A stretch of DNA of 64,000 nt, from NCBI GenBank assembly GCA_963736855.1, contig CAVTQK010000021.1, forward strand, positions 192,001 to 256,000, given 5' to 3'. A program made the position numbers and the translations under genes. Below, in pieces: positions 40,048 to 64,000 of the stretch. The stretch is from an uncultured delta proteobacterium. Lineage in GTDB: Bacteria; Desulfobacterota; Desulfobacteria; Desulfobacterales; UBA2156. The stretch's first letter is position 1. The number at the start of each line of letters is the position of its first letter. The notes beneath the pieces were generated by a model. It saw only the letters and a program-made list of their open reading frames with translations. It searched no databases and had not been told where the DNA came from.

Positions 40048-40997
40048 ATGGCTTACCGACAGGCGCTGGTAACGGGTGGTGCGGGGTTCATCGGCTCCCA
40101 TCTCGTTGAGGCCCTTCTGGAGAAAGGATGCGCGGTAAAAATTCTGGATAATCTTTCAACCGGACGCCTTGAGAACCTGGCTCATGTGCGGGAGCGCGTC
40201 AATTTTTTCCAGGGAGATATCCGGGATACCCGTCTATTGGCCGAAGCGGTCCGAGGTTGTGATGTCGTTTTTCATCAGGCGGCCATGGTCTCTGTTCCCA
40301 AGAGCGTGGAAAATCCCATTGAAAGCTTAGAAATCAACGATCTGGGGACGCTCAGGGTCCTGGAGGCGGCCCGGAAAAATGGCGTGCGGAAAGTGGTTTT
40401 GGCCAGTTCCTGTGCCGTTTACGGAAATGACTCTCAGCTTCCCAAGCATGAATCCTTGCCTCTGAAACCCATGAGTCCTTATGCGGTCCACAAGCTGATC
40501 GGGGAAGTTACGCCCGGCTTTACACCGAACTTTACGGCCTGGAAACGGCGTGTCTGCGCTATTTCAACGTCTATGGACCCAGGCAGGACCCATCCTCACC
40601 ATACTCCGGCGTCATTTCCATTTTTCTGAGCCGGGCCATAAAGAGACAGCGCCCGATCATCTTCGGAGATGGAGCCCAATACCGGGATTTTATCTATGTG
40701 AAGGACGTGGTGCGGGCAAATATGCTTGCTGCAGAATCCAGTGCTGCCTCCGGAAACGTTTATAATATCGGTACCGGTAGCTTTTTGCGCATTTTGGACC
40801 TGTGGAAAGCCATCAGGGATCGACTGGCCGTCCACATTGAACCGGAATTTGCACCGTGCCGTTTGGGAGACATCCGAGAATCGCTTGCCGATGTTCATCG
40901 TGCCCGGGAACACCTCGGGTTTGAGGCCCAATATCCTTTCGATATCGGGCTTGATGCAACCTTGAAATGGTACATGGAAAATTCAGCATTCTTATAA
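40048..40997 (+). CDS. NAD-dependent nucleotide-sugar 4-epimerase, one apparent -1 frameshift near 40507
   Basis: TGGAGFIGS, SPYAVHK in the first frame; YARLY...LRYFNVYGPRQDPSSPYSGVIS, RDFIYV in the next frame. Confidence 0.85.
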
Positions 40998-46515: not shown

Positions 46516-47511
46516 TCAGCGCTTGAAATCCAACACCAGACTGCGAGTGGCCTTGGAATGGTCGGCGCCGCTATCATCAAAAACAGCGATAGCGAAGCTG
46601 AATCTCTTGCGGACGTCGAAGGCGACATCGTCTTCCTGGCCGGTGTTGAATTTTCGGTGCAGCATGACCGTCCAGCGGCCGGTGGCATACCGGCTGTCGA
46701 CCTTGACATCGAACCGTGATCCGCTCGGCTTCACGGGGAGGCGGTAGGGGATCACGTCGCCCGCCTTGAAGATAGAGTAGTCCGTGATGGGGACGGCTTC
46801 CTCCAGGAGCAAGAACCCGAGCACCGAAGGTTTGCGAGCAGGATCCTGCATGTAAAGCGGGTGGGAACCGTCGGGGGTTTCATTTTTAACATCCCCGCCG
46901 CTGCCCGCATCGTTTCTCCGGCCGGTTTCGCGGTAGGACCCGGACGGATTGCCCGCCACGGTGAGCCATCCGTCATCGGCATGTCGGTAGGGCGCCGAGC
47001 GAGCTGCCTTCCAATGCCAGAGATCGCCCTTTTCAGACGGGCTTTCCGTGGATAGGTTCCACTTGTTACGGGGCAGATCCGCCGGGCTATGACAGACGAC
47101 CGTACAGCTGCGCGATGAAAAATAGTTGATCCGTTCGATTTCAAACAGTAGCGCTATCCGGTCTTCGTCCCCCCTGAGGTGAACCCATTTTCCCCCGTCA
47201 AACTGCCACGACTCCTTGGTGACGCTGTAGGTCGGATCAGCCCAGCTGAGCAGGAAGTAAAGTTCGCTGTCCGTATAGAGGGCCCGGATCGAAACTATTT
47301 CCTTGACGTCGGCCATCTCCAGGCGGCCTGCAACAGGAACCTGACCCGGAGCGGCACGCTGCCAGGCAGGGTCATCGATCCCGGCCGGCGGTGTCTTGAC
47401 ATACCGGGCGGTTATCGTCATGACTCCGGCATCATCCGGAGAGGGTGCCGCCGCGAACACAATGGCAGCGCCCAAAAGTGCAGCGATCCCCGCGATCAAC
47501 CACTTAGACAT
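46516..47511 (-). CDS. Ethylbenzene-dehydrogenase gamma-subunit-related (EbdC/EB_dh, DOMON-like) heme-binding periplasmic protein 2
   Basis: Signal peptide; DDPAW, WADPT, EDRIALLF, SCTVVCH, DLWHWKAAR, WTVMLHRK, FAIAVFD. Confidence 0.75.
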   Translation of the reverse strand: MSKWLIAGIAALLGAAIVFAAAPSPDDAGVMTITARYVKTPPAGIDDPAWQRAAPGQVPVAGRLEMADVKEIVSIRALYTDSELYFLLSWADPTYSVTKESWQFDGGKWVHLRGDEDRIALLFEIERINYFSSRSCTVVCHSPADLPRNKWNLSTESPSEKGDLWHWKAARSAPYRHADDGWLTVAGNPSGSYRETGRRNDAGSGGDVKNETPDGSHPLYMQDPARKPSVLGFLLLEEAVPITDYSIFKAGDVIPYRLPVKPSGSRFDVKVDSRYATGRWTVMLHRKFNTGQEDDVAFDVRKRFSFAIAVFDDSGADHSKATRSLVLDFKR

Positions 47512-47531
47512 GGCCCACCTCTTTCAGTGCC

Positions 47532-48611
47532 TTAATGTTCAGGCGTCACGAAGTGCTCGATATACCCCATGACGGACAGAACCGCCACTGCGGCCAGAAC
47601 TAGTGCCGCCGCAACCATCACGCCTATGCGCTTGGAAGGACGGCGTTCGGACGTGCGGTCCAGGAAGGGCAACGCCCCAAGTAAAAATACCAGCCCCCCG
47701 GGAATGATCGCCGATCCGAGAACCATGAACGGGCCTTTAAAAATCGAGACCAGTTGGTTCAGAAACAACACCCACCACTCCGGGCGGGGAATAAACGCAG
47801 AATCGGTCGGATCGGCCGGATCACCCAAGGCAGCCGGCCATTGCCAGGCAACCAGGCCCAGTGCGATCGCCGACACAATAAGAACCGCCAGCCAGCGGTT
47901 GAAAATGGCCGGCATGAAAGGAACTTTCGGCCTTGGGGTCGCATTGGCCGACAGGGGTCCCGAAAGCCCCCGGGTCGCCATTAAATACAGGTGTAAGCCG
48001 ATCAGCAGAACGAGGGCGCAGGGCAACAGGAGGATATGCAGAACATAAAGGCGGGTCAAGGCGACGATTCCAGTCAGGGAGCCGCCGCGAAACAATTGGA
48101 CGAGAAAATCCCCGGCCAACGGAATGGAGCCGATGATGCTGAAGCGCACCTGGGTGGACCAATATCCTTTCTGGTCCCAGGGCAGCAGGTCGCCGGTGAT
48201 GATGAACAGCGGCATCAGCAGAAGAAACAACACTCCCGAGATCCAGACGAGTTGACGCGGCGACTTATAGGCTCCAACGACCAAAGCACGAAGCAGGTGA
48301 AGCCCCATGACCACCAGCAGGAGGTTCCAGGCATAGTGATGCATCCCGCGGACCACGTTTCCCAAAGGCAGGCTGAACTGAAAATAATCGACACTGTCAT
48401 AGGCTGTGCCCGGAACCGGGGTGTAGACAAAGGCCATCAATGCCCCGGAAAGGAACAGCAGGCAAATCAGCGCCAACTGCAGAGCGCCGAAGAACCGGTG
48501 CCAGCAGATGGTGTCGGCCGGTGCCTCCATCTGGAGCAGTTTTGCAAAACCTTCCCGGGCCGCTGCAACGGGCGATCTCTGTTCCGAGCCGTTAAACTCC
48601 GCTTTGGTCAT
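47532..48611 (-). CDS. petB: Cytochrome b of a Rieske/cyt b complex (unsplit b6 + subunit IV type)
   Basis: RGMHH and GLHLLR heme His, LPWDQKGYW, H-x14-H in helix D, PEWW (PEWY-like) Qo motif. Confidence 0.9.
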   Translation of the reverse strand: MTKAEFNGSEQRSPVAAAREGFAKLLQMEAPADTICWHRFFGALQLALICLLFLSGALMAFVYTPVPGTAYDSVDYFQFSLPLGNVVRGMHHYAWNLLLVVMGLHLLRALVVGAYKSPRQLVWISGVLFLLLMPLFIITGDLLPWDQKGYWSTQVRFSIIGSIPLAGDFLVQLFRGGSLTGIVALTRLYVLHILLLPCALVLLIGLHLYLMATRGLSGPLSANATPRPKVPFMPAIFNRWLAVLIVSAIALGLVAWQWPAALGDPADPTDSAFIPRPEWWVLFLNQLVSIFKGPFMVLGSAIIPGGLVFLLGALPFLDRTSERRPSKRIGVMVAAALVLAAVAVLSVMGYIEHFVTPEH

Positions 48612-48783
48612 AGCACTCCATCCCGGGTATCCGGTTGATCAAAAGGATAGAAAAACAAGCTACACACCGTCAGACCAGGCGCGCGGCATTTTGGAAAGCG
48701 CAGCATATTTAACGATATGTGAGCATTCCCAAACGCCGCGCAACGTCGGATCACATCTGGAGGCGCTATTTTTTAGCCTCTTG

Positions 48784-49774
48784 CTATTTCTTGAACTCGA
48801 GGGTCAAGACCTCTGAATCATACGAATCATGGTCCTTGGAGTCGTCGAACAACGCCATGGCGAAGCTGTATTTCTTCGTGGGATTAAAAGCCACATCGTC
48901 ATCGTGTCCCGGTGTCTATCTTGCGGGAGAGAATTACCGTCCATGTGCCGTCGGCATAACGGCTGACGGCCTTGATGTCAGCGAACGACCCTTCCGCGGC
49001 TACCGGCATCCTGAAAGTGACGACGTCGCCGGCCTTGAAGACTGAATAGTCGGTGATTTCAACTGCGTCCGCCGCCAGCAGGATGCCGTTCTTGCCGAAT
49101 TTCTTGCCCGGGGCAAGCATGTACATGGGTTTGGACTTGTCAGTGGTCATGTTTTGCTTGTCGCCGCCCTTGCCGTCATCCCCCTTACGGCCGCCCTTGG
49201 TGTCGCTGATTTTGGCCAGGTAGCCGTCATCGGCGTAGCCGGCAGGGTCGGAGCGGGCCGCCTTCCAGTGCCACAGGTCGCCTTTCTCGGCATCGGTCGC
49301 GGTCCCGAACTTGCCCTCCTTGGCGTTGGGCGCTCCCGGCGGGACGTGGCACGTCACCGCGCAGCCCTTGGTGGCGAAGTTGTTGATGCGGTTGATCTCG
49401 AACAGAAGCGAAATCCGGTCCTCGTCGCCCTTCAAGTGGGTCCAGGCCTTCCCGTCGAACTTCCAGGCCTCCTTGGTCATGCTCTGGGTGGCATCTTTCC
49501 AGTTGAACCAAAGGTAGATTTCATTGTCCGTAAAGACGGCTTTGGTGTTCACAGCCGTTTTTTTGCCCGCGAATATCTCCTTGCCGTCGAAGGGCACCTC
49601 GAGCGCCTTGATTTTCACCCACACGGGGTCATCCAGACCGGTGGGGGCGGCTTTCGAGTAAGCGGCGGTCAAGGTCTGTTTGGCGGCCCCAGTGACGTTG
49701 TTTGAGAAAAAAACCAAGCCAAGTACGCTCAGCAGGACACACGTCAGGACACCCAGTTTCATTGGTTTCTGCAT
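48784..49774 (-). CDS. EbdC/EB_dh-related heme-binding periplasmic protein 1, one apparent +1 frameshift near 48908
   Basis: Paralog of 46516 gene (EDRISLLF, GCAVTCH, DLWHWKAAR). Removing one G restores DTGHDDDVAFNPTKKYSFAMALFDD...LEFKK*. Confidence 0.75.
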
Positions 49775-49808
49775 CGAATACCTCCTTCGGCCCGATGCCG
49801 GGCGCGGG

Positions 49809-50321
49809 TTAAAGTGTAATTTGAACCAACAGCTTGCCCTCTTCTACCTTGTGCGGAAGGAGCGAAAGCGGCTTTTTCGGCGGTCCGGATGCCGGTTGTC
49901 CTTCCGGGTCGAACCGGCCGGTGTGGCAAGGGCACTCGAACATTCGGGTGTCTTTTCTCCAGATGACATTGCAGGCCAGATGCGAACAGATTGAAGAAAA
50001 GACTTTGACGCCGTGCTGGGCATCGGCCTTGGCCCAGACAAACCCCCGCTGTGGGAGGTCAACCCAGCCGTCCTTCACCATGAACTCAAAGGACAGCATG
50101 CTGAAATCATTCGGGGTCAGCATGTCTGCTTTGCCGAAATCGACCCATTTGCCGACGCCTTTTTTAAGAGAGGGGATAACAATGGTCGACACCATGGGGA
50201 TGGCCGCCAGAACGGCCGCGCCGCCTGCTAGAACAGAAGTCGTGATGAAGGTGCGGCGCGAAATGTTGAACTGATTTTCCACCGTGGGTTTTTGAGGAAG
50301 GGTGAGAGGGTTCTCGGCCAT
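49809..50321 (-). CDS. Rieske [2Fe-2S] protein with Tat signal anchor
   Basis: SRRTFI twin-arginine motif, CSHLAC and CPCHTG boxes, SGPP. Confidence 0.92.
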   Translation of the reverse strand: MAENPLTLPQKPTVENQFNISRRTFITTSVLAGGAAVLAAIPMVSTIVIPSLKKGVGKWVDFGKADMLTPNDFSMLSFEFMVKDGWVDLPQRGFVWAKADAQHGVKVFSSICSHLACNVIWRKDTRMFECPCHTGRFDPEGQPASGPPKKPLSLLPHKVEEGKLLVQITL

Positions 50322-50790: not shown

Positions 50791-53463
50791 TCAGGCGGCT
50801 TTCTCGATCCTCACGGCGCAAATTTTGTATTCGGGGATTTTCGACACGGGATCAAGCGCACCAATGGTTAACTTGTTCACCGCCGCTTCATAGAAATGGA
50901 ACGGCACAAAAGCAACGCCACGATCAGTAGTGTCCGAAACCAGAGTCTTTATTCTCAATCTTCCCCGTCTTGAGACGATATTGACGTATTCTCCGCTCGC
51001 AACACTCAGCGCCTTCGCGTCCTCCACATTGATCTCCGCCAATGCTTCGGGATAAAGACGATTCAAAGCGGTTCCTTTGCGACTCATCGTTCCCGTATGA
51101 TAATGCTGATGCACCCGCCCTGTCGTCAAAACGAACGGATATTCCGCATCGGGAAGCTCGGCGGGCGCTTTATAATCGATGGCGAAAAACGATCCTTTTC
51201 CCTTGGTAAAGCCTTTCATGTGCAGGACTGGAGTGCCTGGATGTTCCAGTGTTGGACACGGCCATGTCAAGCTTTCTTGATCAAGCCGATCATAAGTAAT
51301 ACCGCCATAACTTGGGGTAAGAGCATTGATTTCCGTCATGATTGCGGAGGGGTCCGCATAGTCCATCTCATATCCCATTTCCTTGGCAATGGCGGTGATA
51401 ATACGATGATCTTCCCAGGCTTCTCCGGGAGCATCCAATGCCTTGCGCACCCGCAACACCTTGCGCTCGGTGTTCGAGAAGGTCCCCTCCTTTTCAGCAA
51501 AACACGCACTGGGGAGAACCACGTCGGCAAGCTTGGCCGTCTCCGTTAAAAAAATGTCCTGCACAACAAGGAAATCCAATGCCGACAGGCTCTTTTCAAC
51601 ATGGTGCATATCGGCATCGCTCAGCATCGGGTTTTCGCCCATGATGTACAAGGCCTTAATGCCTTTCCCGGCTGCCGGAACCATCTCGGTAACGGTCATG
51701 CCAACTTTTCCCGGGAGTGAGGGCACCTTCCAGGCTTTGGCGAATTTGTCTCGTATGGCAGCATCGGTTACGGCCTGATATCCTGAAAAAACATTGGGCA
51801 AGCCGCCCATATCACATGCGCCCTGAACGTTGTTTTGGCCGCGAAGCGGATTGACACCGCCGCCCGCAACCCCGACATTTCCGCAGAGCATTGCCAAGGC
51901 GGCAAGAGACTTTACGTTGTCCGTGCCGGTGGTATGCTGGGTTATACCCATAGTGTATAGAATCGACCCGGGTTTTTCTGTTCCATACAACCGCGCCGCG
52001 GCAATCATAGCTTCTGCCGGAATACCCGTAATGCCGGACACATAATCAGGCGTATATTTAGCGACACACTGCTTGAGTTCTTCATAACCGGTTGTACGCT
52101 CATCAATGTAGCTCTGTGCTTGAAGGTTCTCATTGATGATTACATTCATAAAACCGTTTATCCAGGCCACATCTGTGCCGATTCTCTGACGCAGCCATAG
52201 ATGGCAAATATCCACCAGCTTGATCCTTCTCGGATCGACGACAATCAGCTTGGCACCGTTCTTCGTGACGGCTTCATGAATGTAGTTGGCAATAATAGGA
52301 TGGTTTGACGTGGTATTGGTACCGGTAATGAGAATGACCTTTGACTTCAATACATCCTGGAAGGGATTGGTCATCGCTCCGCTTCCAAACGTGGCGGCAA
52401 GCCCTGCCACCGTTGAGGAGTGTCAGAGACGGGCGCAGTGATCCACATTGTTGGTGCCGATCACCGCGCGCATGAATTTCTGAAACAGATAATTTTCTTC
52501 GTTGGTGCATCGAGCAGAAGAAAAACCCCCGATGGCGTCGGGACCATGATCGCTTTTGATCTGGCTGAACCTTCTGGCGATCAGGTCAAGGGCTTCATCC
52601 CAGCTGGCTGATTCGAACTGACCATTCCTCTTGATAAGCGGCGTGGTCAGTCGCTGATCACTAGCGATGAATTCATAGCCGAATCGGCCTTTGACGCACA
52701 GGCTGCCCTTATTGACGGCCACATCGCTCTTTCCGACCACACTCGCCACCCGATTGTCGAGAACATTGAGTTCGATTTGACACCCGCAACCACAATAGGT
52801 GCAGGTGGTGACCACCTTTTTGGTGACGAACCCTCTCGCCTTGAGTGGGCTGAGGTTCTCGGTCAGCGCCCCGGTCGGACAAACCTGCAAACATTCTCCG
52901 CAAGACACGCACTTCTCGGGATCCACCGTCAGTTTCAGCACCCCATCGGTATCGACAAATTCCAGCGCCCCCACACCCTTGATTTCTCGACAGGCGGAGG
53001 CGCAACGCTGGCAAAAGACGCAACGATCGCGCCAGTATTTAATCAAGGGAGTGGCATAGGCCACCTCAACCCTCTCCTTGGGCTCCTCATAGGCATCTGC
53101 TCTGACTCCTAATTCGAACACCAGATCCTGCAGCTTACAGGCACCGGCCTTGTCGCAGATCGGGCAATCCAGGGGATGATGGGCCAAGAGGTGCTGCAAG
53201 GATTTCCGCCGCATATCGGCGAGCATGTCCGAATTGGTCGCCACCGCCATACCGTCGGCCACCGAAGTCTTGCAGGCTTCCACCGGGGTGTCTTTGCCTT
53301 CGACTTCGACCACGCAGAGTTTGCAGGAGCCTATTGGATTCAATCGTTCATGGTAGCATAGGGTCGGTATCTTGATCCCCGCGTTCTTGGCCGCTTGCAG
53401 AATTGTGCTATCCTGCTGAGCGATGACTTCGTGACCGTCAATTGTCAACTTGACTGTGCTCAT
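50791..53463 (-). CDS. fdhA: Selenocysteine-containing formate dehydrogenase alpha subunit (Mo/W-bisPGD) with NuoG-like N-terminal Fe-S module, 890 aa
   Basis: The two ORFs are in the same frame, separated only by TGA at 52423-52425 in DHCARL-U-HSSTVAGLA. IPTLC, HPLDCPICDKAGAC, 2x CxxCxxC, CTYCGCGC, LRGQNNVQG, PEYK. No signal peptide. Confidence 0.92.
52393..52411 (-). promoter_or_regulatory. Bacterial SECIS hairpin
   Basis: GGTGGCA-GGGCT-TGCCGCC stem-loop beginning 11 nt after the UGA, same geometry as the E. coli fdhF SECIS. Confidence 0.8.
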
Positions 53464-53579
53464 TTTTATTTGCTCTCTTCGCTACCTGTTTATCACTCAC
53501 CCAAGACCTGCCGCCAAGCCTCGGCCCAGTTCGTGTCGGCTAATGATCCACAATCATTCCCGGAACCTTGGGCTTAGGC

Positions 53580-55058
53580 TTACAGCAAGGTCAGAAAGGA
53601 CAGTTTGACCATGGCAATATAAGTGGATGGAAAGAGCCCCAGCGACAACACACCATAAGCTGAAATGAAGATCGCGATCACCAGGGCCGGCGAAAACACG
53701 CTTGCCGGCATTTCTTTCTCGACGGCCGCTTCTGGAGCCTGCATATACATGGCAACGGTCACCCGAAGATAATAGTAAACCGACACCACGCTGTTGATCA
53801 CCCCAATAACGGCAAGGCCCACAAAACCTTCCTTGATCGCGGCGGAAAAGATATAGAACTTGCCCATAAAACCACCTGTGGGCGGAATCCCTGCCAGGGA
53901 AAACAAGAACAGGCTCATGGCCAGAGCTGCGATCGGATGCCGGTAACCGAGTCCCCTGAAATCTTCAATGTGGACTCTTTGTTCGCCCTTGCCGGCAAGC
54001 ACGGTGATCACCGCGAAGGCCCCGATATTCATACAGGTGTAGGCGAGCATGTAATAGAGGATGCTGGTGATCCCCTGCTCGCCTGCCGACAGGAATGCTA
54101 CCAGCACATAGCCAGCGTGGGCGATGCTCGAATAAGCGAGCATCCGCTTGATATTGTCTTGCACCAGGGCAATCACATTGCCGACGCTCATGGTCAGCAC
54201 GGCCATCACCCAGATCAGCATGGTCCAGTTGGTCTGCAGGGACGGCAGCGCTTCCATGAAGATCCGCACAAATGCGGCGAACGCCGCCGCCTTGGGCCCG
54301 GCGGACATGAACGCCGTAACCGGGGCGGGAGCGCCTTCATACACGTCCGGGGCCCACATGTGAAACGGCACCGAGGCAGTTTTGAAGCCGAAACCGATCA
54401 CCAGCAGTGCCATCCCCATGACGATGGTGGGCCCGCCGAAGCCGGCGGCGGCGATATACTTGGCAATGGCTGGAATCTTGGTGGTGCCGGTAGACCCATA
54501 GATCAGCGCGATGCCGTAAAGCAGAAAGCAGGTCGCAAACGAGCCAAGCAAAAAGTACTTCAGGGCCGCTTCGTTGGACACCATGCGGGTACGAGTATAT
54601 CCGGCCAGCACATAGAGCGATATCGACATCAGCTCAACCCCGAGAAAAATGGTGATCAATTCGGCTCCGCTCGCCATGATCATCATCCCCAGGGTCGCAA
54701 AAATGATGAGCGCATAATACTCACCATGTTGCATAGCTTCGTTATCCAAATACCTGATGGAAATGAGGATGGTCAGTCCAGTGCCGAGCAGAAAGATCAA
54801 TTTGAAAAAGCGGCAGTAATTGTCCACCACCCACATGTCATTGAAGGAATACGCGATTTCCCGGAGCTCGAAGCTCTGGGGCTGGGTTAAAACCACCGTA
54901 ACGGCGCCTATCACCCCGATCAGACTGACATAGCCGTAATAGCCCCTGAGCCTTGTGGGGGCAAAAGATTGGATCAACAGAATCAGCAACGAACAAACCA
55001 CCAGAATCAACTCTGGAGCTATGGCGCTCAAATTGATGCTGCTCATGACCTGTTCCAT
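53580..55058 (-). CDS. nuoN: NADH:quinone oxidoreductase subunit N
   Basis: SNEAALKYFLLG, PFHMWAPDVYEGAP, IKRMLAYSSIAHAGY, SLAGIPP, YYYLR. Confidence 0.93.
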   Translation of the reverse strand: MEQVMSSINLSAIAPELILVVCSLLILLIQSFAPTRLRGYYGYVSLIGVIGAVTVVLTQPQSFELREIAYSFNDMWVVDNYCRFFKLIFLLGTGLTILISIRYLDNEAMQHGEYYALIIFATLGMMIMASGAELITIFLGVELMSISLYVLAGYTRTRMVSNEAALKYFLLGSFATCFLLYGIALIYGSTGTTKIPAIAKYIAAAGFGGPTIVMGMALLVIGFGFKTASVPFHMWAPDVYEGAPAPVTAFMSAGPKAAAFAAFVRIFMEALPSLQTNWTMLIWVMAVLTMSVGNVIALVQDNIKRMLAYSSIAHAGYVLVAFLSAGEQGITSILYYMLAYTCMNIGAFAVITVLAGKGEQRVHIEDFRGLGYRHPIAALAMSLFLFSLAGIPPTGGFMGKFYIFSAAIKEGFVGLAVIGVINSVVSVYYYLRVTVAMYMQAPEAAVEKEMPASVFSPALVIAIFISAYGVLSLGLFPSTYIAMVKLSFLTLL

Positions 55059-55085
55059 AAATTATCGCCCTTGACCCTTGGCAAG

Positions 55086-56651
55086 CTATTGAAGGTCCAC
55101 TCTCGCAAACACATTGTTCAGCCGGCTCGGCTTAGCTCCGTCCAGGTGAGCAGTTATCTGCGGGTTCACCATCTCCAGGAGATGATCCACGGAAGCGTCC
55201 ATCGTCTTCAAAAACGGTTTAGGATATACGCCTATCCAGACAATGAACAAAACGATGGGCAGCAAATAGGCATATTCCCGCCCGGTCATGTCCTTCAGGT
55301 CCCGATTCTCAGCCTTGGTGATTTGGCCGTACATGACCCGCTTATACATCCACAGAAGGTACACCGCACCCAGGATCAAACCGATGGTGGCAACCAAACC
55401 ATAGCCCAGCGACGACTTGAAGGCACCTATCAGAATCAACAGTTCACCGACGAAGCCGTTGAGTCCGGGCACACCCATCGAGGACAAAGCCACCAGCAAG
55501 AACAGGGCCGCGAACGCCGGCATGACTTTCATGATTCCGCCGTATTCCGAAATGAGCCGGGTGTGGCGCCGTTCGTACAACATCCCAACAATCAAGAACA
55601 GTGCGCCGGTGCTCAAACCGTGGTTGATCATCTGGATCATGCTGCCCTTTAAACCGTCAGCGTTCAGAGCGAACATTCCCAGCATGCAGTAACCCAGATG
55701 ACTGACGCTTGAGTAGGCCACCAGCTTCTTGATGTCGTCCTGAGCGATGGACACCATCGCGCCGTAAATGATCCCCACCACTGACAGAGCCAGGACGATG
55801 GGCATGAAATCGATTGTGGCCTGCGGGAAAATCGGCAGGCAAAAGCGCAGAAATCCATAAATTCCCATCTTCAGCAACACTCCGGCCAGAATCACACTCC
55901 CCGCCGTGGGCGCTTCCACGTGGGCATCGGGAAGCCAGGTGTGGAACGGGAACATCGGCACCTTGATGGCAAAAGCCACAAAGAATGCCAGGAACAGCCA
56001 TATTTGAATGTTGCCCGGCAGACCCAGATTATAATAGTCGAGGATATCGAAGGTGTAGGTCCCGGTGGCCTTAAAGTGCATGAAGTAAAGGACCAGAATG
56101 GCCACCAGCATCAGCACGCTGCCGCTCATGGTGTATATGAAAAACTTGACCGCCGCGTAGATTCGCCGTGGCCCACCCCAGATCCCGATGATGAAATACA
56201 TGGGGATCAACATCACTTCCCAGAACACGTAAAAAAGGACGAAATCCAGCGCACAGAACACGCCGATCATCCCGGTTTCCAGGAACAGCAGGGAGGCCAT
56301 GTAGCCTTTCACCCTCTCCGTCACCGCCGTCCAGGTCGAAAGGATGGCCAGGGCGGTGAGAAAGGTGGTAAGCAGGACCAGCAACAGACTGATCCCGTCG
56401 ATGCCCATATGATAGCGAATGGCGAACTGGCTGATCCAGGGAACGTCTTCCACGAATTGCATTTCCCAGGTCCCGCTATCGAACATGAAATAGAGCGGCA
56501 GGGAAACCACAAAGGTTACCACGCTGGTACTGAATGCCACCCATCGTATCAGTTCATGGCGGGTGCTCTTGATCAGACAGATCGCAACAATCCCCACCAG
56601 GGGCAGATAGGTGATCAAGGACAAAATCGGCAAATTAATTATATTTATCAT
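55086..56651 (-). CDS. nuoM: NADH:quinone oxidoreductase subunit M
   Basis: [48 protein letters not shown]. Confidence 0.93.
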
Positions 56652-56655
56652 AGAC

Positions 56656-58423
56656 TCATATCAAGGAAGTAAATAAGTAGTAGCCGAGGATGACGACGCC
56701 GCCAATCAGCATCGTCGCCGCATAATTCCGAACCAGTCCGCTGGCGGTAACGCGGATCACGCCCGCCAGGCCAATGAAAAACTGAGCGACACCGTTAACC
56801 AACCCATCGATCGCACGGACATCGATAATCCGCGCGAGAAAACCGGAGAAGAACAGAGTGAAGCGGGTGAACCAGGTATCGTAAATGTTGCCCAAATAGC
56901 TATCGCTCGAAGCCAGCGGCTTTCTCGCGATCCACATGAATACCCGGCTTCCCTTGCGGTATACCCAATCGGTATCGATGCTGATGGTGGGTTCCGGATC
57001 GAGCTTTTTGAGCAGCATGAAAAAGCCCAGACCGGTGAACAGGAGGATACCCAAGGCGCTGGTTACATGATCACCGGTATAAGGTTCGAAGTGCACCGGA
57101 AAGGGAAGCAGGTTGTACAGCGGCCCGGGAAGCACACCGATCCCGATGCAAAAGAAGGCCGCCATGCCCATGGCCAGCAGCATATTAAGCGGCGGTTCCT
57201 TGGCTTCCAACCCGGAATCTTTACCAAAAAACATGTAGTAGGGAAGCTTCAAACCCGTGTGCAGGAATGTACCGGATGAGGCCATGGTCAGCAGTAGGGC
57301 CACCATCGGCCGATGGTCATGAGTGGCGCCGGAAACCACCATCGACTTGGTGACAAATCCACTGAACAAGGGGAAGGCCGAGATCGCAAACCCGCCGATC
57401 ATATAGAGCACCAACGTGATCGGCATGGTTCGGTACAAGCCTCCCAGTTCGGTGAGTTTCCTGCGCCCTGTCATTTCGATCACCGCGCCGGCTCCCATAA
57501 AAAGGAGGCCCTTATAGAGGATGTGGGCGAAGGCGTGGGACACCGAACCGTTCAGGGACATCTCCGTGCCGATCCCGACTCCGGCCACCATGTACCCGAC
57601 CTGACTGACTATGTGGTACGCCAGCAACCGTCTGCAGTCGTTTTCCAGCACCGCGTAAACAACCCCGTACAGGGCCATGATCGTTCCCAGATACACCAGC
57701 AGTTCAGTGCCTGGGAAAGACCCGCACCAAAACGTACACAGCCGTTTTGGTGGTGAATGCCGACATGAACACCGATCCGGTTACGGTCCCTTCCGGATAG
57801 GCATCGGTCAGCCAGGCGTGCAGCGGTGGCACCGCGGCATTTATAATAACCCCCACCAGCATCAGGTAGAAGGCCAGGCTGCCGTCTTGATCGAGAGGGC
57901 CCACCAGCATCGACTTGGTGCTGAGATAGTGGAGGATAATCCCTCCAAGCAGACACACACCGCCGAAGGTGTGCACCAGCAGGTACCGGTAACCGGCCCG
58001 GATCGCATCAGGTTCACGCCGGGCAAACACCAGATAGGCGGAAGCGAAGGCCATCAGTTCCCAGAATACGAACAGGGTCAAGTAATCCCCGGCGAACGTC
58101 ACCCCCAGCGCCCCTCCCACGTACAGGAAAGCGGCCACGTGCTGGCCCTGATCGTTCACGTGCAGGGCATACACGATGCCGATGAACGACATAATGGCGA
58201 AGACCCAGCCGAACACGATGCTGAGCTTGTCCACGGCACCGAAGGTCAGCACCATGCCAAGAAAGTCCCAGGACCAGAAGGTGCCCGCGGACATGGCGAA
58301 CACAGAAGCGACCCCGAGCAGGGGGATCAGCATCAGATAGGCTTTCCGCACCTTCCCGCGCAGAAATGGGATGAGAGCTGCTCCGAAAATGTAGAATACG
58401 GACGGGTGGAACCAATCAGTCAT
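56656..58423 (-). CDS. Mrp/NuoL-type antiporter-like subunit with NuoL-like C-terminal tail, one apparent +1 frameshift near 57712
   Basis: [35 protein letters not shown]-terminal [11 protein letters not shown]...SGLVRNYA. Removing one C gives [11 protein letters not shown]. Confidence 0.8.
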
Positions 58424-58673
58424 TGTAGTAATCCTCGCCCCGCATGACGCCGCACTGGTGGCCGATGAATTTAGAGACCAGAACGATAACAGCGCAGGCC
58501 ACAAACCCGTACAAGGCGCCCCATCCGGGCATCTTATCCCAGATATACATGGCATGCTCCCGGTGAACCAGAAAGTCCGCTACTACTGTAAGCCCCAGAG
58601 CCACGTAACTGAGCTTTTTCAAAGTGCCGGCATTTGCTGGGTTGCCTATGTAAAGGACGACCCTCTTGATCAT
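58416..58673 (-). CDS. Small two-TM membrane protein of the complex I-like operon
   Basis: 85 aa, PGWGALYGFVAC, MRGEDYY. Overlaps both neighbours. Confidence 0.75.
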   Translation of the reverse strand: MIKRVVLYIGNPANAGTLKKLSYVALGLTVVADFLVHREHAMYIWDKMPGWGALYGFVACAVIVLVSKFIGHQCGVMRGEDYYND

Positions 58674-60169
58674 CGGATCACCTCCCTGGCGAGACTCAGA
58701 AAGTAGTCGGGGAATATCCCGATCAATAGTGAGATGGTCGCAGTCAGCACCAGCGGCACCACCACCATCTTGATTTCCCTGACGTCCTCATGTTCGTGAT
58801 GGTCATGACCGGAGCCAGTGGCCACCGCCGCCACTCCCTTGTCCTTTTCGAAGAAGGCCTTGTAAGTGATGGGCAGAAAATAGGCTGCATTCAGGACCGT
58901 GCTGGCCAGCAAGACCATTAGTATGGGCACCGATCCGGACTCGATTGACCCCAGGGCCAGAAACCATTTGGTCGTGAACCCGGCGGCAGGGGGCACCCCG
59001 ATCATGCTGAGGGAGGCGATGAAAAACGCCGCCATGGTCCAGGGCATCTTCTTTCCGATACCGGAGAGTTGGCTGATTTCGGTCTTGTGCGCGCTGCAGT
59101 AAAGGGAACCGGCACAGAAAAACAGGGTGATCTTGGAAAAAGCGTGATTGGCGATGTGCATGATACCCCCCACCATGCCGCTCGGCGTCAGCAAGACCGC
59201 CCCCAGGATAACGTAGGAGAGCTGGCTCACGGTCGAATAGGCGAGCCGCGCCTTCAGGTTGTCCTTGGTGAGGGCGATGATCGAAGCGGTGATTATGGTG
59301 AAGGAGACCACATAAGCCGCGGTAATGCCGAGGTTGATGCGGCTCATCAAATCAATGCCATAAACGTTGAACACCACCCGCAGGATCGAAAACACCCCGA
59401 CCTTCACCACGGCCACCGCATGGAGCAGAGCACTGACCGGGGTCGGCGCCACCATGGCGGACGGCAGCCAGTTGTGGAAAGGCATCACCGCGCCTTTGGC
59501 GAACCCGAACAGGAACAAGAAGAAACCGACGAACAGGAGCCACGATCCCGGCTGATTGCTCAGCAGCCCATGGCGCTGGAAATCCGTCGTACCCGCCACC
59601 ATGTAAACGATGATGATACCGGACAGCAGAAAGGTCTTGGACATACCGAGCAGGTACAGGAAGTATTTCTTCGCCCCTTCCTGGGCTTCCGGCGTTTCCT
59701 TGTGACCGACCAGGGGCACCGTAGCCAGACTCAGGATTTCGTAGAAAGCGAACAGGGTCACCAGATTGGCGGAAAAGGCGACGCCCATGGTGGCCGACAT
59801 GCTGACCGCGAAGCAGCTATAGTAGCGGGTCTGTGCATGCTCCTTGCCGGCCCGCATGTAACCGATGGAGTAGCAGGTGGTAACGATCCAGAGGAACGAT
59901 GAAACCGTCGCAAATAGCAGGCCGAAGGCGTCGACTCGGAACTTGATATCGATCCCCTGGTAGAAGCCGCTCACCAGGGTGTATTCGATGTTGTGCCCGG
60001 AAAAGATAGCCGGCGCCATGGACATGACGATGGAAAATTTCACGACGCCGGCAAGGATGGACCAGAACTCGCGCACATTGGGCCGATCCGCGGTCCCCAG
60101 AATCAGTGGCACCGAAAGAAGAGACGCCAGCACGGCCAGCAATGGTTTTATGGACAGAATGGTTTCCAC
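58670..60169 (-). CDS. MrpD-like antiporter subunit (extra proton-pumping module)
   Basis: YSIGYM, FYEIL, PFHNWLPSAMVAPTPVSALLHAVAVVK, LAYSTVSQLSY, HAFSKITLFF. Confidence 0.85.
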   Translation of the reverse strand: METILSIKPLLAVLASLLSVPLILGTADRPNVREFWSILAGVVKFSIVMSMAPAIFSGHNIEYTLVSGFYQGIDIKFRVDAFGLLFATVSSFLWIVTTCYSIGYMRAGKEHAQTRYYSCFAVSMSATMGVAFSANLVTLFAFYEILSLATVPLVGHKETPEAQEGAKKYFLYLLGMSKTFLLSGIIIVYMVAGTTDFQRHGLLSNQPGSWLLFVGFFLFLFGFAKGAVMPFHNWLPSAMVAPTPVSALLHAVAVVKVGVFSILRVVFNVYGIDLMSRINLGITAAYVVSFTIITASIIALTKDNLKARLAYSTVSQLSYVILGAVLLTPSGMVGGIMHIANHAFSKITLFFCAGSLYCSAHKTEISQLSGIGKKMPWTMAAFFIASLSMIGVPPAAGFTTKWFLALGSIESGSVPILMVLLASTVLNAAYFLPITYKAFFEKDKGVAAVATGSGHDHHEHEDVREIKMVVVPLVLTATISLLIGIFPDYFLSLAREVIR

Positions 60170-60176
60170 GTTTTCG

Positions 60177-60479
60177 TTAACCTTTACTTAGATTGATTTC
60201 GTCCACGTTCACGGTCGCTTTGTTCCGGAAAAGCGAAATGATGATGGCCAATCCCACAGCCGCCTCAGCCGCAGCGACGGTCATGATCATGAACACGAAA
60301 ACGTGACCATCCAGGTTGTTGAGAAAGCGCGAGAAAGCGACAATGGTCAAATTGACGGCATTCAACATCAACTCGATGCACATATAGATGATCAAGGCGT
60401 TGCGTTGTGTGAACACTCCCACCGCGCCGATCGAAAAAAGCACAGCACCCAACATTAAGTATGAGTTCAATGAAACCAT
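60177..60479 (-). CDS. nuoK: NADH:quinone oxidoreductase subunit K
   Basis: [20 protein letters not shown]. Confidence 0.95.
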
Positions 60480-60508
60480 AGGCTACCATTCATGACCCGG
60501 ACGGCGAC

Positions 60509-61027
60509 TCAATCGCGCCCAGAGTCATCAATCCTCCTTTTGGCTAGGATGACCGCGCCGACAATTGCTGCGAGTAACAACACGGAGGCGATTTCGAAAG
60601 GCAACAGGTATTCGGTAAAGAGCATCTTCCCCACCGCCTTCGTGGTGCCGAACGCTTCGTCCACGTTCCCAAGCGCTGCCAGCGAACCGTTCGCCTGGAA
60701 CAGACTCACCATGGTAACCAGCAGCAAGCCCACCACCAACACGCCGAAGACTTGCAGCAGAATGACATTGCCTCCCAGTTTCCCTTCCTTTTCTTCCAGA
60801 TTGAGCAGCATGATCACGAACAGAAACAGCACCATGATGGCGCCGGCATACACGATCAGCTGCAGCACCGCGATCAGATGCGCATCCAGCAGCGCGTACA
60901 ATCCAGCTAGAAAGGACATGGTCGCGACCAGGCTCATGGCGGCGCGCACCGGCCTCTTGTTGGTCACCATCAGCAGCGCCGAGACCACGGCACCGACAGA
61001 GAAGGCGGAGAAAATCAATAATTGCAT
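60509..61027 (-). CDS. nuoJ: NADH:quinone oxidoreductase subunit J
   Basis: QLIVYAGAIMVLFLFVIMLL, YLLPFE. True start at ATG 61027. Confidence 0.92.
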   Translation of the reverse strand: MQLLIFSAFSVGAVVSALLMVTNKRPVRAAMSLVATMSFLAGLYALLDAHLIAVLQLIVYAGAIMVLFLFVIMLLNLEEKEGKLGGNVILLQVFGVLVVGLLLVTMVSLFQANGSLAALGNVDEAFGTTKAVGKMLFTEYLLPFEIASVLLLAAIVGAVILAKRRIDDSGRD

Positions 61028-61638
61028 TTGGAGTAAATCCTCCTGATGTATTCCAAACGAGCCTTCACACTGTCCTCGGGCCTGAGGAGTTGTTCTTTCG
61101 AATAACGCATGAGGCTCCGGTCCCGTTGCGCCAACCCCCGGTATTCCGAACTCATGACGATGGCCTCCTTCGGGCAAACCTCCTCGCAATAGCCGCAATA
61201 GACGCAACGGGACATGTCGAGGGTGTAGCTCAGCGGATAGCGATCGCCATCGGCCCTTTCCCCGGCCATGACGGTGATGGCCTTGGCCGGACACATTATT
61301 TCACACAGGCCGCAGGCCACGCATTTCTCGGCTCCGTCCAAACCGGCCACCAGAACCGGCCGACCGCGATACGCGGGAGGCAGCACGACCTGCTCTTCCG
61401 GATAGTAGACGGTGAACACCTTGCGCTTCTTGCCGGCCGGCGGGAAGACGAAGCCGATCATATTGATCACGAAATGCTTGCTGGTGACGTACAGGCCCCG
61501 CAGTACTTCGAAAAGGTACAGCTTCTCCCACAAGGTGAGCTCCACGTTCTTCCTCACCTTCTTGGGCTTCAGCGTAGCCGAAGGGACTCCCACCAGCGGA
61601 TGATATTGGGATTGCTCAGAACCTGTCATCTTGCTCAT
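61015..61638 (-). CDS. nuoI: NADH:quinone oxidoreductase subunit I
   Basis: YPEE, YRG, CVACGLCEIMCP, CVYCGYCEEVCP. Confidence 0.92.
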   Translation of the reverse strand: MSKMTGSEQSQYHPLVGVPSATLKPKKVRKNVELTLWEKLYLFEVLRGLYVTSKHFVINMIGFVFPPAGKKRKVFTVYYPEEQVVLPPAYRGRPVLVAGLDGAEKCVACGLCEIMCPAKAITVMAGERADGDRYPLSYTLDMSRCVYCGYCEEVCPKEAIVMSSEYRGLAQRDRSLMRYSKEQLLRPEDSVKARLEYIRRIYSKCNY

Positions 61639-62708
61639 AGCACCAGAACCACCAGCCCGGTTATCAGAATGTTGATGAGTGCAAGCGGCAGCAGCATCTT
61701 CCAGCACAGCCTCATGACCTGGTCGTAACGGAAGCGCGGAAGCGTCCAACGAATGGTCATTTGCAGCCAGATGAAGAAAATAATCTTGGCGAAGAAAGTG
61801 GCAACGTTCACCAGCATTGCCAGCAGGGCGGAGCCGTTTGGTCCCGCGAACTGGAACAGGGACAATAATTTCTGATCGCTCACGAAGGGGAGATGCCAGG
61901 CACCGAAAAACAGGGTGGTCACGATCCCACTGATGGTCACGATTTCCAGAAATTCCCCCATCCAGAACATGACGAACTTGAGGCCGCTGTATTCGGTGAA
62001 GTAGCCGGCCACCAGTTCCGATTCCGCCTCGGGCATATCGAACGGCACCCGCTTGTTTTCGGCAATGGCGCAGGTGATGAACAACACAAAACCAAGAGGT
62101 TGGAGAAAAATGCCCCAGTGGAAGAAATTTTCTTGCAGGGCCCCGATCTCTGTGAGCCGCAGGGAACCGTACACCATGATCACACCGATGATGGTGAGGC
62201 CCATGGCTACTTCATAGGAAAGCATTTGCGCCGACGCCCGCAAGCCGCCCAACAGCGACCAGTTGCTGCGCGAAGACCAACCGGCGAGGACCACCCCGTA
62301 GGTGGCGAGCGAGGCCAGAGCGAAAACGAACAGGATGCCCACATCCAGGTCGGCGATCACCAGGTTGACACGATGCCCGAACAGATCGTACTGGCCGCCG
62401 AAGGGAACCACACTGAAGGTGACAATCGCCGGAACCAGACAGATGAACGGCGCCAGGGTATGGAAGAACTTGTTGGCGCCGCTGGGGATGAAGTCTTCCT
62501 TAGCGAGGACCTTGATGGCGTCGGCGAGGGAATGGAACAGGCCGATCGCGGTGAAGCCGAAGATGGCCGCCCGGTTCGCGCCGATCCGGTCCTGCATCAC
62601 CGCGCTTTGCTTTCTTTCGACCCATCCCAACACGGGGGCAAAAAAGCCCAGGTTTACGCTGAATACGAATATAATTTTTGCAAGGGACTCGATCAGGTCT
62701 GCAACCAT
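61635..62708 (-). CDS. nuoH: NADH:quinone oxidoreductase subunit H
   Basis: ERK, QDRIG, GGLRASAQMLSYE, PFDMPEAESELVAG, RWTLPRFRYDQ. Confidence 0.95.
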   Translation of the reverse strand: MVADLIESLAKIIFVFSVNLGFFAPVLGWVERKQSAVMQDRIGANRAAIFGFTAIGLFHSLADAIKVLAKEDFIPSGANKFFHTLAPFICLVPAIVTFSVVPFGGQYDLFGHRVNLVIADLDVGILFVFALASLATYGVVLAGWSSRSNWSLLGGLRASAQMLSYEVAMGLTIIGVIMVYGSLRLTEIGALQENFFHWGIFLQPLGFVLFITCAIAENKRVPFDMPEAESELVAGYFTEYSGLKFVMFWMGEFLEIVTISGIVTTLFFGAWHLPFVSDQKLLSLFQFAGPNGSALLAMLVNVATFFAKIIFFIWLQMTIRWTLPRFRYDQVMRLCWKMLLPLALINILITGLVVLVL

Positions 62709-62710
62709 GG

Positions 62711-63901
62711 CTATCTATCGCATTCTCCGCCGATCATGTTGATCATGTCGAATGTGGGGACGATATCGGCGATCAGCCTCCCCTTCATCAGCCTGGGCAT
62801 GGCGGCGGTGAGGGCAAAACAAGGCGGTCTTACCCGGCATTTGTAGGGCTTCCCGCTGCCATCGCTCACAAGATAGAATCCGAGTTCGCCGTTGGCTCCT
62901 TCGACGGCCGCATAGACCTCGCCGGGAGGCGGCTTGATGCCATCGATAACAGTCTTGAAGTGAAAGATCAGGGAATCGATCCGATGGTAAATGTCTTCCT
63001 TGGGCTGCATCCGATATTGCGGCAGGTCGAGATTGATGGGTCCGTCAGGAAGTTGGCTCAAGGCCTGCTCGACAATCCGCATGCTCTGTTGGATCTCTTC
63101 CATTCGCACCAGGTACTTGTCGAAATTGTCGCCCTTCTCACCGATCGGGATCTCGAAATCCATCCGATCGTAAACCAGGTACGGCTGCGCCCTGCGCACA
63201 TCGTAAGGGACCCCGCAGGCCCGCAGGCAGGGGCCCGTAAATCCATAAGCGATGGCTTCGTCCGCCGGAATGACCCCGACATCTCTCACCCGGTCGATGA
63301 AGATCCGGTTCTTGGTCAGGAGCTTGTCCACATCCTCCCACAAGCGCCGGCACTCCTTGAAGGCCAGCCGGGTCTTTTCCTGAAAGCCGTCGGGCAGATC
63401 ATTCTTGAGACCGCCGATCCGTACATAGTTGACGGTGACCCGCGCCCCACACAGCATCTCGATCAGGTCCCACACCAGTTCCCGCGCTTCCACAAAATAG
63501 AGGAAGGCGGTGAAGGCGCCGAGTTCGAGCCCGCTGGCGGCGACATTGGTTAAATGATCGGCGATCCGCGACAGCTCACAGGCGATCACCCGCAGATACT
63601 GGCACCGTTCCGGGACCTCAATGCCGATCAGCTTTTCCACCGCCAGCGCATAGCCCACGTTGTTGATCAGGGGCGATACGTAATTCAGCCGGTCGGTGTA
63701 AGGGATCACCTGCTGCCAGGTGCCGTTCTCGCACATCTTCTCGAACCCCCGGTGGAGGTACCCGATGTCCACCTTGAGATCGACGATGGTCTCCCCGTCG
63801 AGGGTCGCCAGGAACTTCACTGTGCCATGGGTCACCGGATGCGACGGACCCATGTTGATCACCATGTGTTCGGTGTGCAGATCTTTGGCTAAATCGGACA
63901 T
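62711..63901 (-). CDS. nuoD: NADH:quinone oxidoreductase subunit D
   Basis: NMGPSHPVTHG, GYLHRGFEK, DRLNY, GELG, GECDR. No NiFe CxxC pairs. Confidence 0.95.
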   Translation of the reverse strand: MSDLAKDLHTEHMVINMGPSHPVTHGTVKFLATLDGETIVDLKVDIGYLHRGFEKMCENGTWQQVIPYTDRLNYVSPLINNVGYALAVEKLIGIEVPERCQYLRVIACELSRIADHLTNVAASGLELGAFTAFLYFVEARELVWDLIEMLCGARVTVNYVRIGGLKNDLPDGFQEKTRLAFKECRRLWEDVDKLLTKNRIFIDRVRDVGVIPADEAIAYGFTGPCLRACGVPYDVRRAQPYLVYDRMDFEIPIGEKGDNFDKYLVRMEEIQQSMRIVEQALSQLPDGPINLDLPQYRMQPKEDIYHRIDSLIFHFKTVIDGIKPPPGEVYAAVEGANGELGFYLVSDGSGKPYKCRVRPPCFALTAAMPRLMKGRLIADIVPTFDMINMIGGECDR

Positions 63902-63925: not shown

Positions 63926-64000
63926 TTAATTAACCGGCCCGATTAAGGGCTGCCTCTTTTTAATGGGATAGTCCTTCCGCAAGGGATGCCCCTCGAAGCC
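63926..64000 (-). CDS. nuoC: NADH:quinone oxidoreductase subunit C, 3' end only
   Basis: Hand translation GFEGHPLRKDYPIKKRQPLIGPVN*. Runs off the window edge. Confidence 0.85.
   Translation of the reverse strand, partial: GFEGHPLRKDYPIKKRQPLIGPVN

Follow-up and report, generated by a model that had tools for sequence, protein, structure and literature searches.

A selenocysteine formate dehydrogenase as the predicted input module of a quinone-type complex I operon in an uncultured member of the Desulfobacterales

From which donor does a complex I operon draw its electrons if it carries no nuoE, nuoF or nuoG and ends with a gene for a formate dehydrogenase (FDH)? This question is raised by a stretch of 64,000 nucleotides (the window) from an uncultured delta proteobacterium of the Desulfobacterales (assembly GCA_963736855.1, contig CAVTQK010000021.1; G000:C21:192001-256000 in our numbering, in which G000 is the genome of the window and L-numbers denote compared loci). 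G000 is a 100%-complete genome of a sulfate reducer and carries dsrA, selA, tRNA-Sec and an acetyl-CoA synthase family gene. We propose, with a probability of about 0.7, that the operon encodes an ion-translocating formate:quinone oxidoreductase in which FdhA, an FDH with an intact selenocysteine (Sec) site, replaces NuoEFG and is predicted to dock on NuoD and NuoI.

The order of the genes on the minus strand is nuoABCD-HIJK, an MrpD-like gene, a gene for a protein of 85 amino acids (aa), a second MrpD/NuoL-like gene, nuoMN and fdhA (Table 1). As described in an initial annotation of the same DNA, nuoH follows nuoD with no nuoE, nuoF or nuoG between them (nuoD end at 62711, nuoH start at 62708, 2 bp apart) and the FDH gene lies 116 bp past nuoN (nuoN stop at 53580, fdhA ATG at 53463). 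That annotation had also named nuoEFG located upstream in the operon as the finding that would speak against it; the genes that adjoin nuoD there are nuoA, nuoB and nuoC, and genes for NuoE and NuoF are missing from the nuoD-nuoH junction as well as from the DNA before nuoA and behind fdhA. The nuo cluster contains no BfuABC genes and the operon no HycB-type gene. A promoter and terminator scan, limited to consensus matches, gave no terminator-like site on the coding strand between nuoN and fdhA, and both genes are presumably co-transcribed.

If the single internal TGA (codon 347) is read as Sec, fdhA forms one frame with an intact active site (Sec347, His348 and Arg541; motif HCARL-U-HSST, with the arginine within LRGQNN). 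The Pfam domains Fer2_4, NADH-G_4Fe-4S_3, 4Fe-4S dicluster, Molybdop_Fe4S4, Molybdopterin and Molydop_binding were found, and with Sec-His, the arginine, a proximal 4Fe-4S cluster and the molybdopterin domains the protein has the sequence features of a Mo/W-bisPGD formate dehydrogenase of the FdhF/FdsA type. The N-terminal motifs listed in the initial annotation are present, but its list is one cluster short: Pfam predicts five clusters, namely a 2Fe-2S, a His-ligated 4Fe-4S, two further 4Fe-4S and the Mo/W-proximal 4Fe-4S cluster. Its statement that FdhA has no export signal holds, because the 2Fe-2S domain begins at residue 3 and leaves no room for one. In all 37 aligned FdhA N-termini the four 2Fe-2S cysteines are invariant, and so are the cysteines of a bridging cluster of the A2 type. 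A hairpin resembling a selenocysteine insertion sequence (SECIS) is kept in 20/20 aligned copies and two of its pairs show changes on both sides; this conservation supports a SECIS element only weakly, because the region is also coding, and as a single-sequence fold the hairpin was not significant (z -0.2).

In order to see whether fdhA belongs to the operon we looked at its relatives from two sides. On the FdhA side, the best 80 relatives in genome_contigs were taken and their context was read in 10-kb flanks; the closest named ones among these 80 belong to the Desulfobacterales and Syntrophobacteraceae. The fdhA gene adjoins nuo genes on the same strand in 38/80, all of which retain TGA-His. 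It follows nuoN in 15 of these loci, precedes nuoA together with an SfrB-like gene in 2 and nuoH on cut contigs in 3, and takes the position of nuoEFG after nuoABCD in 18. In 6 of these 18 it stands there alone and in 12 it comes after an SfrB-like gene; the next gene is nuoH in 14, and in the other 4 the contig or locus breaks off. Another 18 of the 80 have nuoE/F-type or SfrB-like neighbours and no visible membrane genes; the remaining 24, many of them on short contigs, are unassigned. The gap between nuoN and fdhA is 22–29 bp in 9/23 loci, and no operon combining this FdhA with another NuoG-type subunit on the same strand was seen within the 10-kb flanks. The arrangement is present in the isolate Desulfoferrobacter suflitae DRH4 (L031), and nuoN-fdhA in Desulforhabdus sp. 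TSK (L036); within the genus, FdhA and this NuoN were both found in G000 and G005 and neither of them in G001-G004. On the Nuo side, a NuoH-anchored search of metagenome_contigs gave 80 loci selected blind to FDH, 35 of them with at least 77% identity. Fifteen of these extend past nuoN and were counted by hand: 11 show nuoN followed by FdhA (truncated ahead of the active site in one of them), 1 has FdhA and SfrB before nuoA, 2 have SfrB and an FdhA-like protein without the catalytic residues, and 1 is unassigned. In a FastTree phylogeny of FdhA (77 rows; those shorter than 560 aa, namely L037, L052, L053 and L068, were dropped here and from the motif count below), a single clade (support 99) unites 34 nuo-linked with 7 unassigned rows and includes 0/18 of the rows with soluble context. 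L096, a locus without nuo genes, is joined by two further nuo-linked rows.

The SfrB-like protein, which joins a NuoF N3 domain to a GltD-type flavoprotein, is encoded beside fdhA in 14/38 nuo-linked loci, and together with the invariant 2Fe-2S cysteines it suggests another reading, in which the docked FdhA is a three-way hub whose 2Fe-2S cluster is bound in trans by a flavoprotein or ferredoxin, so that formate, NAD(P)H and quinone are coupled. The genome-wide search for nuoEFG proposed in the initial annotation bears on this. It gave three NuoF-type genes in G000, the only ones there with an N3 motif and none adjoining a nuo operon; these modules are a further point for the hub, but each lies in a cluster of its own with nuoE and a gene for a short 2Fe-2S protein as its partner. 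An SfrB orthologue was not found in G000 (best matches 40–46%, confined to the GltD part), and both NuoD lineages include FdhA operons that lack SfrB, so that we consider the hub unlikely. A canonical NuoG was not found in G000 either, as no match to TIGR01973 exceeded the cut-off and the best one was FdhA itself (408.5 vs 470). There are three complex I-like operons in all in this genome, and the two others also lack nuoEFG. One of them, a headless nuo operon at G000:C21:166280-180854 (minus strand), is followed by genes for a 272-aa thioredoxin-like Fe-S protein and for a 1200-aa protein in which 2Fe-2S, GltD-like, ferredoxin and molybdopterin-like domains are fused; these two are candidates for an input module of another kind.

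For the docking of FdhA at the place of NuoG, the region around the His-ligated cluster is informative. The motif H[PA]LDC[PS][IV]CDxxGxC occurs in 35/36 nuo-linked rows (the one miss is a fragment), in 0/18 rows with soluble context and in 7/23 unassigned rows. Canonical NuoGs from the loci of the NuoH search read HPLDCPICDQAGEC or near it, with P after the first Cys in 14/14 and D next in 12/14. A six-frame scan of G000 gave just two proteins with the motif, namely this FdhA and an FDH paralogue on contig C13 whose gene is frameshifted. The accessible part of the work on Rhodobacter capsulatus FdsA describes Leu122, next to the His-ligated cluster, as a dimer contact of NAD-dependent FDHs that is not conserved in complex I (PMC7171172); FdhA has Pro101 at this position. 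A ranking of PDB entries with the first 204 residues of FdhA was not decisive (NuoG 139.7 bits, HydA 136.8, FdsA 127.3).

A second line of evidence comes from NuoD. Residues 289–324 comprise 36 residues in 42/42 loci with an active FdhA; their counterpart is down to 10–12 residues in 6 headless operons from relatives and to 11 in each of the two other G000 operons. The rest of the 85 NuoD hits are 20 more long ones for which no subunit with the motif is in view, most of them on cut contigs, 15 long ones whose neighbour is a NuoG-type subunit, a dead one or a cut one, and 2 short ones in the second nuo gene sets of L188 and L194. As the segment is kept here and lost in headless NuoDs, the NuoD of the window appears to be built for a NuoG-type partner, and judging from the genes of G000 only FDHs would be available for this place. 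In this sample the segment can thus serve as a simple sequence marker to tell headed operons from headless ones.

The structure prediction that the initial annotation had called for agrees with this. For NuoD, NuoI and FdhA(1–285) it gave a score of 0.76 against 0.02 for the best control, with 100% contact agreement between runs and a partner pLDDT of 81; the mark for this score is reached by 116/157 solved and 2/215 mismatched pairs. FdhA is placed on the kept NuoD segment, with residues 93–127 and 206–213 contacting NuoD 294–320 and NuoI 107–127. We read this interface as a likeness and not as binding, because solved complex I looks similar and the model may have reproduced it, and regard the NuoD segment as the stronger test of docking. 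Since gene context, cluster motif, kept NuoD segment and predicted complex all agree, the earlier proposal that FdhA sits at the NuoG position is supported, and several partly independent tests on the sequence level back the docking.

These data also bear on the possibility of a soluble FdhA that shares no more than its regulation with an 11-subunit complex I, the latter taking its electrons from ferredoxin or from an input module whose genes lie elsewhere. The solved structures closest to FdhA are those of soluble enzymes (full-length match to FdsA, PDB 6tg9, 1.5e-207), 11-subunit complexes are regarded as docking platforms with several possible donors (PMC11238625, accessible part), and the gap to nuoN is 116 bp here and 249 bp in L023. 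Against it stand the NuoD segment that headless NuoDs have deleted, the restriction of the NuoG-type motif to two FDHs in G000 and the relatives with the gene between nuoD and nuoH. With FdhA conserved beside the operon and the segment, absent from 8 headless NuoDs, kept in its NuoD, the operon falls outside the headless 11-subunit type, and we give a soluble FdhA little chance.

The acceptor is probably a quinone. NuoD has only one Cys, near its C-terminus, and therefore neither of the two cysteine pairs in the large subunit that serve as the criterion for group 4 NiFe hydrogenases (PMC3144371, accessible part); for this reason we reject a formate hydrogenlyase, in line with the initial annotation. 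NuoB retains the motifs ACC, GxC and PGCPP, and the subunits NuoB, C, D and I with the N2 ligands and the conserved His and Tyr are of the quinone type. That NuoD keeps these residues had also been noted: H21, H25 and Y74 match conserved positions of Thermus thermophilus Nqo4, which we take to be those of the quinone site. In the membrane arm A, H, J, K, M and N are present. Canonical nuoL is absent and two MrpD-like genes together with the 85-aa gene, overlooked in the initial annotation, stand in its place, which gives an arm with four antiporter-like subunits. The first MrpD-like subunit is extra to the canonical set and keeps the conserved Glu/Lys positions, and the second has Asn at the first conserved Lys position; for the 85-aa protein no match was found in Pfam or NCBIfam, only unnamed Atlas clusters. 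We do not claim a fifth or extra pumped ion because of this Asn and because the arm also occurs without FdhA. A four-antiporter arm is found with canonical nuoEFG (L166, L168, L169, L173) and in headless operons, and FdhA also occurs with canonical NuoL, so that the fourth antiporter is a separate trait. A complex I with a fourth antiporter subunit has reportedly been described in The ISME Journal in 2018.

The MrpD-like subunits could also derive from a hydrogenase-type membrane arm, and an enzyme that is hydrogenlyase-like or uses a non-quinone acceptor would fit the replaced NuoL, the menaquinone ring pathway not found in G000 (see below) and the FDH-fed pumps known in the superfamily (formate hydrogenlyase, PMC9474812; Fdh-Ech, PMC13040438; accessible parts), but it is very improbable given a NuoD over the NuoD cut-off that lacks the NiFe cysteine pairs and has complex I subunits as best matches, an operon without HycB and the same arm beside canonical nuoEFG in the four loci named above.

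Several observations weigh against a docked formate:quinone oxidoreductase. The compared loci are related and partly redundant, with some near-duplicates, so that the counts overstate their independence. The three NuoE/F-type modules of G000 could act in trans. For the ring synthesis of menaquinone, none of the mqnA/D family, menB and menD was found over the cut-off in G000, which leaves a gap at the acceptor, and mqnA/D was not found in G005 either; the family is found in 17/41 genomes searched and is patchy in the genus (2/5 other genomes). G000 does have three UbiA-family genes, one of which adjoins a methyltransferase gene that we take to be UbiE-like. The complex score may stem from the likeness to solved complex I, and the controls included no soluble FDH. 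Among the relatives, L037 (69% identity) shows no nuo genes over 10 kb of upstream sequence and is truncated on the downstream side, in L035 fdhA lies on the opposite strand facing nuoN, and three FDHs with SfrB only, no nuo genes seen, nest among the nuo-linked N-termini (support 84). The NuoG-type motif is not exclusive to nuo loci, as L096 and the C13 paralogue have it without adjoining nuo genes. Finally, one extra base near 57712 breaks the frame of the second MrpD-like gene. This gene is one open frame in 9/9 relatives checked, the base is missing from the contigs of runs X1 and X2, and since other FDH genes of the G000 assembly are frameshifted too an assembly error is likely.

For an FdhA-headed complex I we infer the activity of FdhA, the quinone, the ion, the stoichiometry and the direction as follows. 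Formate would be oxidised in the cytoplasm at the Mo/W-Sec site, and the electrons would pass from the proximal 4Fe-4S cluster (equivalent to N7) via the bridging cluster to the N4 equivalent and the His-ligated N5 equivalent, then through the two NuoI clusters to N2 on NuoB and to the quinone at NuoD/H, whose reduction would drive the movement of ions by the membrane arm. The 2Fe-2S cluster might be a side port for the SfrB-like NADP(H) flavoprotein in those relatives that encode one, which G000 does not. The enzyme may also run in reverse and reduce CO2 with electrons from quinol, as would be plausible given the Wood-Ljungdahl enzyme encoded in this genome. In its widest form, which we regard as tentative, the proposal would be a reversible four-antiporter complex I with a working FDH as its NuoG-type subunit, which would move more ion charge with menaquinone than a NADH-fed one and in reverse would use the ion gradient to make formate from CO2 and quinol, for the Wood-Ljungdahl pathway or syntrophic formate export.

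How does this operon compare with known systems? With the canonical 14-subunit complex I (T. thermophilus Nqo1-14) it shares NuoA-D, H-K, M and N, the quinone-type NuoD, the NuoG-type cluster motif and the predicted interface at the His-ligated cluster. It differs in two MrpD-like subunits and a small protein for NuoL, in the missing NuoE/F and in a NuoG-type subunit with an intact Sec-FDH site and a bridging cluster; having neither NuoE and NuoF in the operon nor a NuoG with degenerate molybdopterin domain, it is not a member of this class. The following comparisons refer to the accessible parts of the cited papers. The 12-subunit complex I of Campylobacter and Helicobacter also has a NuoG-like twelfth subunit with a predicted cluster in the bridging position and no NuoEF, but its proposed donor is flavodoxin (PMC3144371, PMC7171172), whereas FdhA with its catalytic Sec, His and Arg would itself obtain the electrons by oxidising formate. 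FdsA from the NAD-dependent enzyme FdsABG(D) of R. capsulatus has the same five-cluster architecture, in which the extra cluster A2 connects the N7-equivalent cluster to the chain; in contrast to the present case it is soluble, passes electrons to flavin mononucleotide via 2Fe-2S and dimerises at the His-ligated cluster by Leu122 (PMC7171172, PDB 6tg9), and no fdsB or fdsG lies near the fdhA studied here. In the formate hydrogenlyase of E. coli (PMC9474812) and in Fdh-Ech of Moorella (PMC13040438) an FDH feeds a membrane enzyme of the complex I superfamily, but the acceptor is H+ at a NiFe site, and E. coli FdhF docks via HycB with a geometry unlike that of Nqo3 (PMC9474812). The predicted Nuo-Bfu shares an operon-encoded alternative input module and proposed menaquinone reduction but takes NADH plus ferredoxin via BfuABC, and no Fdh-headed Nuo appears in that part of the paper (PMC9304861). 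The NADP-dependent FDH of Moorella (sfrB2-sfrA2-fdhF3) resembles the pair of SfrB-like protein and FdhA in 14 loci, but it is soluble with genes of its own and the window has no SfrB (PMC13040438); 'FdhA-Nuo' in PMC10689502 denotes a soluble FdhA-NuoEF. An FDH-headed quinone-type complex I is not described in the accessible parts of PMC4046663, PMC9304861, PMC8808070, PMC4453560, PMC9474812, PMC7171172, PMC11238625, PMC5736913, PMC10689502, PMC13040438 and PMC3144371. No description was found in the literature searched, a scope that leaves most subscription journals and supplements outside, so that a passing mention is possible. From its genes the operon would work like complex I with a swapped input module and belong to none of the 14-subunit, headless 11-subunit, Nuo-Bfu or hydrogenlyase types.

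The long-standing view of NuoG is that of an FDH-like protein whose catalytic domain is dead and whose cluster N7 is stranded. If our proposal is true, here is a complex I with a catalytically intact NuoG-type domain, in which the bridging-cluster wiring makes this architecture work as an enzyme, and formate/CO2 would join the donors of quinone-type complex I with a direct link to membrane ion pumping. With the standard potentials in PMC9304861 (Table 1, in the accessible part) we computed -66.8 kJ/mol for formate to menaquinone vs -47.5 for NADH, which supports 3.8–4.6 vs 2.7–3.3 H+ at 180–150 mV, that is, enough for about four protons instead of about three. As the arrangement occurs in the genome of an isolate, D. 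suflitae DRH4, the system is testable.

N-terminal and NuoD trees (FastTree, midpoint-rooted, without clade tests) say something about its origin. The idea of FdhA as a living ancestor of NuoG is not supported, as the N-terminal tree groups FdhA with dead SfrA-like subunits (support 94) and keeps it separate from canonical NuoG. Distant members of the NuoD lineage of the window carry a dead FdhA-like subunit or canonical nuoEFG, and the nesting of the FdhA operons among them fits a late recruitment; the FdhA clade is also paired with a second, distant NuoD lineage (45–51% identity).

Table 1. Features of the formate dehydrogenase-linked nuo operon (positions in the window).
Feature	Position	Strand	Remarks
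fdhA	50791..53463	-	890-aa Sec formate dehydrogenase, NuoG-like N-terminus
SECIS-like hairpin	52393..52411	-	7 bp; begins 11 nt past TGA
In-frame TGA, likely Sec347	52423..52425	-	TGA or Cys there in relatives; selA and tRNA-Sec in genome
FdhA residues 93–127, His-ligated cluster region	53083..53187	-	motif HPLDCPICDKAG; predicted interface to NuoD and NuoI
nuoN	53580..55058	-	TIGR01770 over cut-off
nuoM	55086..56651	-	TIGR01972 over cut-off
MrpD/NuoL-like antiporter subunit 2	56656..58423	-	NuoL-like C-terminal tail; NF009310 matches both halves
85-aa small hydrophobic protein	58416..58673	-	between both MrpD-like genes, position conserved
MrpD-like antiporter subunit 1	58670..60169	-	499 aa; NF006236 701.6 bits vs cut-off 663
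nuoK	60177..60479	-	
nuoJ	60509..61027	-	NuoJ families below cut-off; start inferred
nuoI	61015..61638	-	2x[4Fe-4S]; TIGR01971 over cut-off; start set at second likely ATG
nuoH	61635..62708	-	NF004741 over cut-off
nuoD	62711..63901	-	396 aa, quinone-type; TIGR01962 482 bits, over cut-off; Nqo4 alignment
NuoD residues 294–320	62942..63022	-	predicted FdhA contact segment; kept with NuoG-type subunit, deleted in headless operons
nuoC 3' end	63926..64000	-	nuoA, nuoB and rest of nuoC beyond window at G000:C21:255926-257358

Some observations at the same and related loci are worth recording. A second FDH type with the NuoG-type motif, found at G000:C13:4453-7134 (L114), L141:4136-6805 and L035:4192-6864, might act as an exchangeable head. 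In L141 it is divergent from nuoA and in L035 it stands in tandem with FdhA, both times with the active site HCART-stop-HAP. L196 (G018:C209) shows the order nuoE-F-A-B-C-D, a full-length FdhA-like subunit without catalytic residues and nuoH, and in seven metagenome loci (L158-L164) nuoB and nuoD are missing from the string nuoA-C-H-I-J-K-L-M-N. Downstream of fdhA in the window, 470 bp past it (46516-50321, minus strand), a Rieske protein, two proteins like the heme b subunit of dimethyl sulfoxide reductase-type enzymes and a cytochrome b are encoded, a cluster not seen next to fdhA in relatives. A sugar-epimerase-like gene at 40048-40997 is split over two frames, another sign of single-base assembly errors. 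In eight loci of the type with SfrB and FdhA (L040, L041, L042, L044, L047, L049, L056 and L061) a stop codon replaces the first Cys of the tandem N2 pair in NuoB, which is Cys-Cys in the operon of the window, and a selenocysteine is the likely N2 ligand there.

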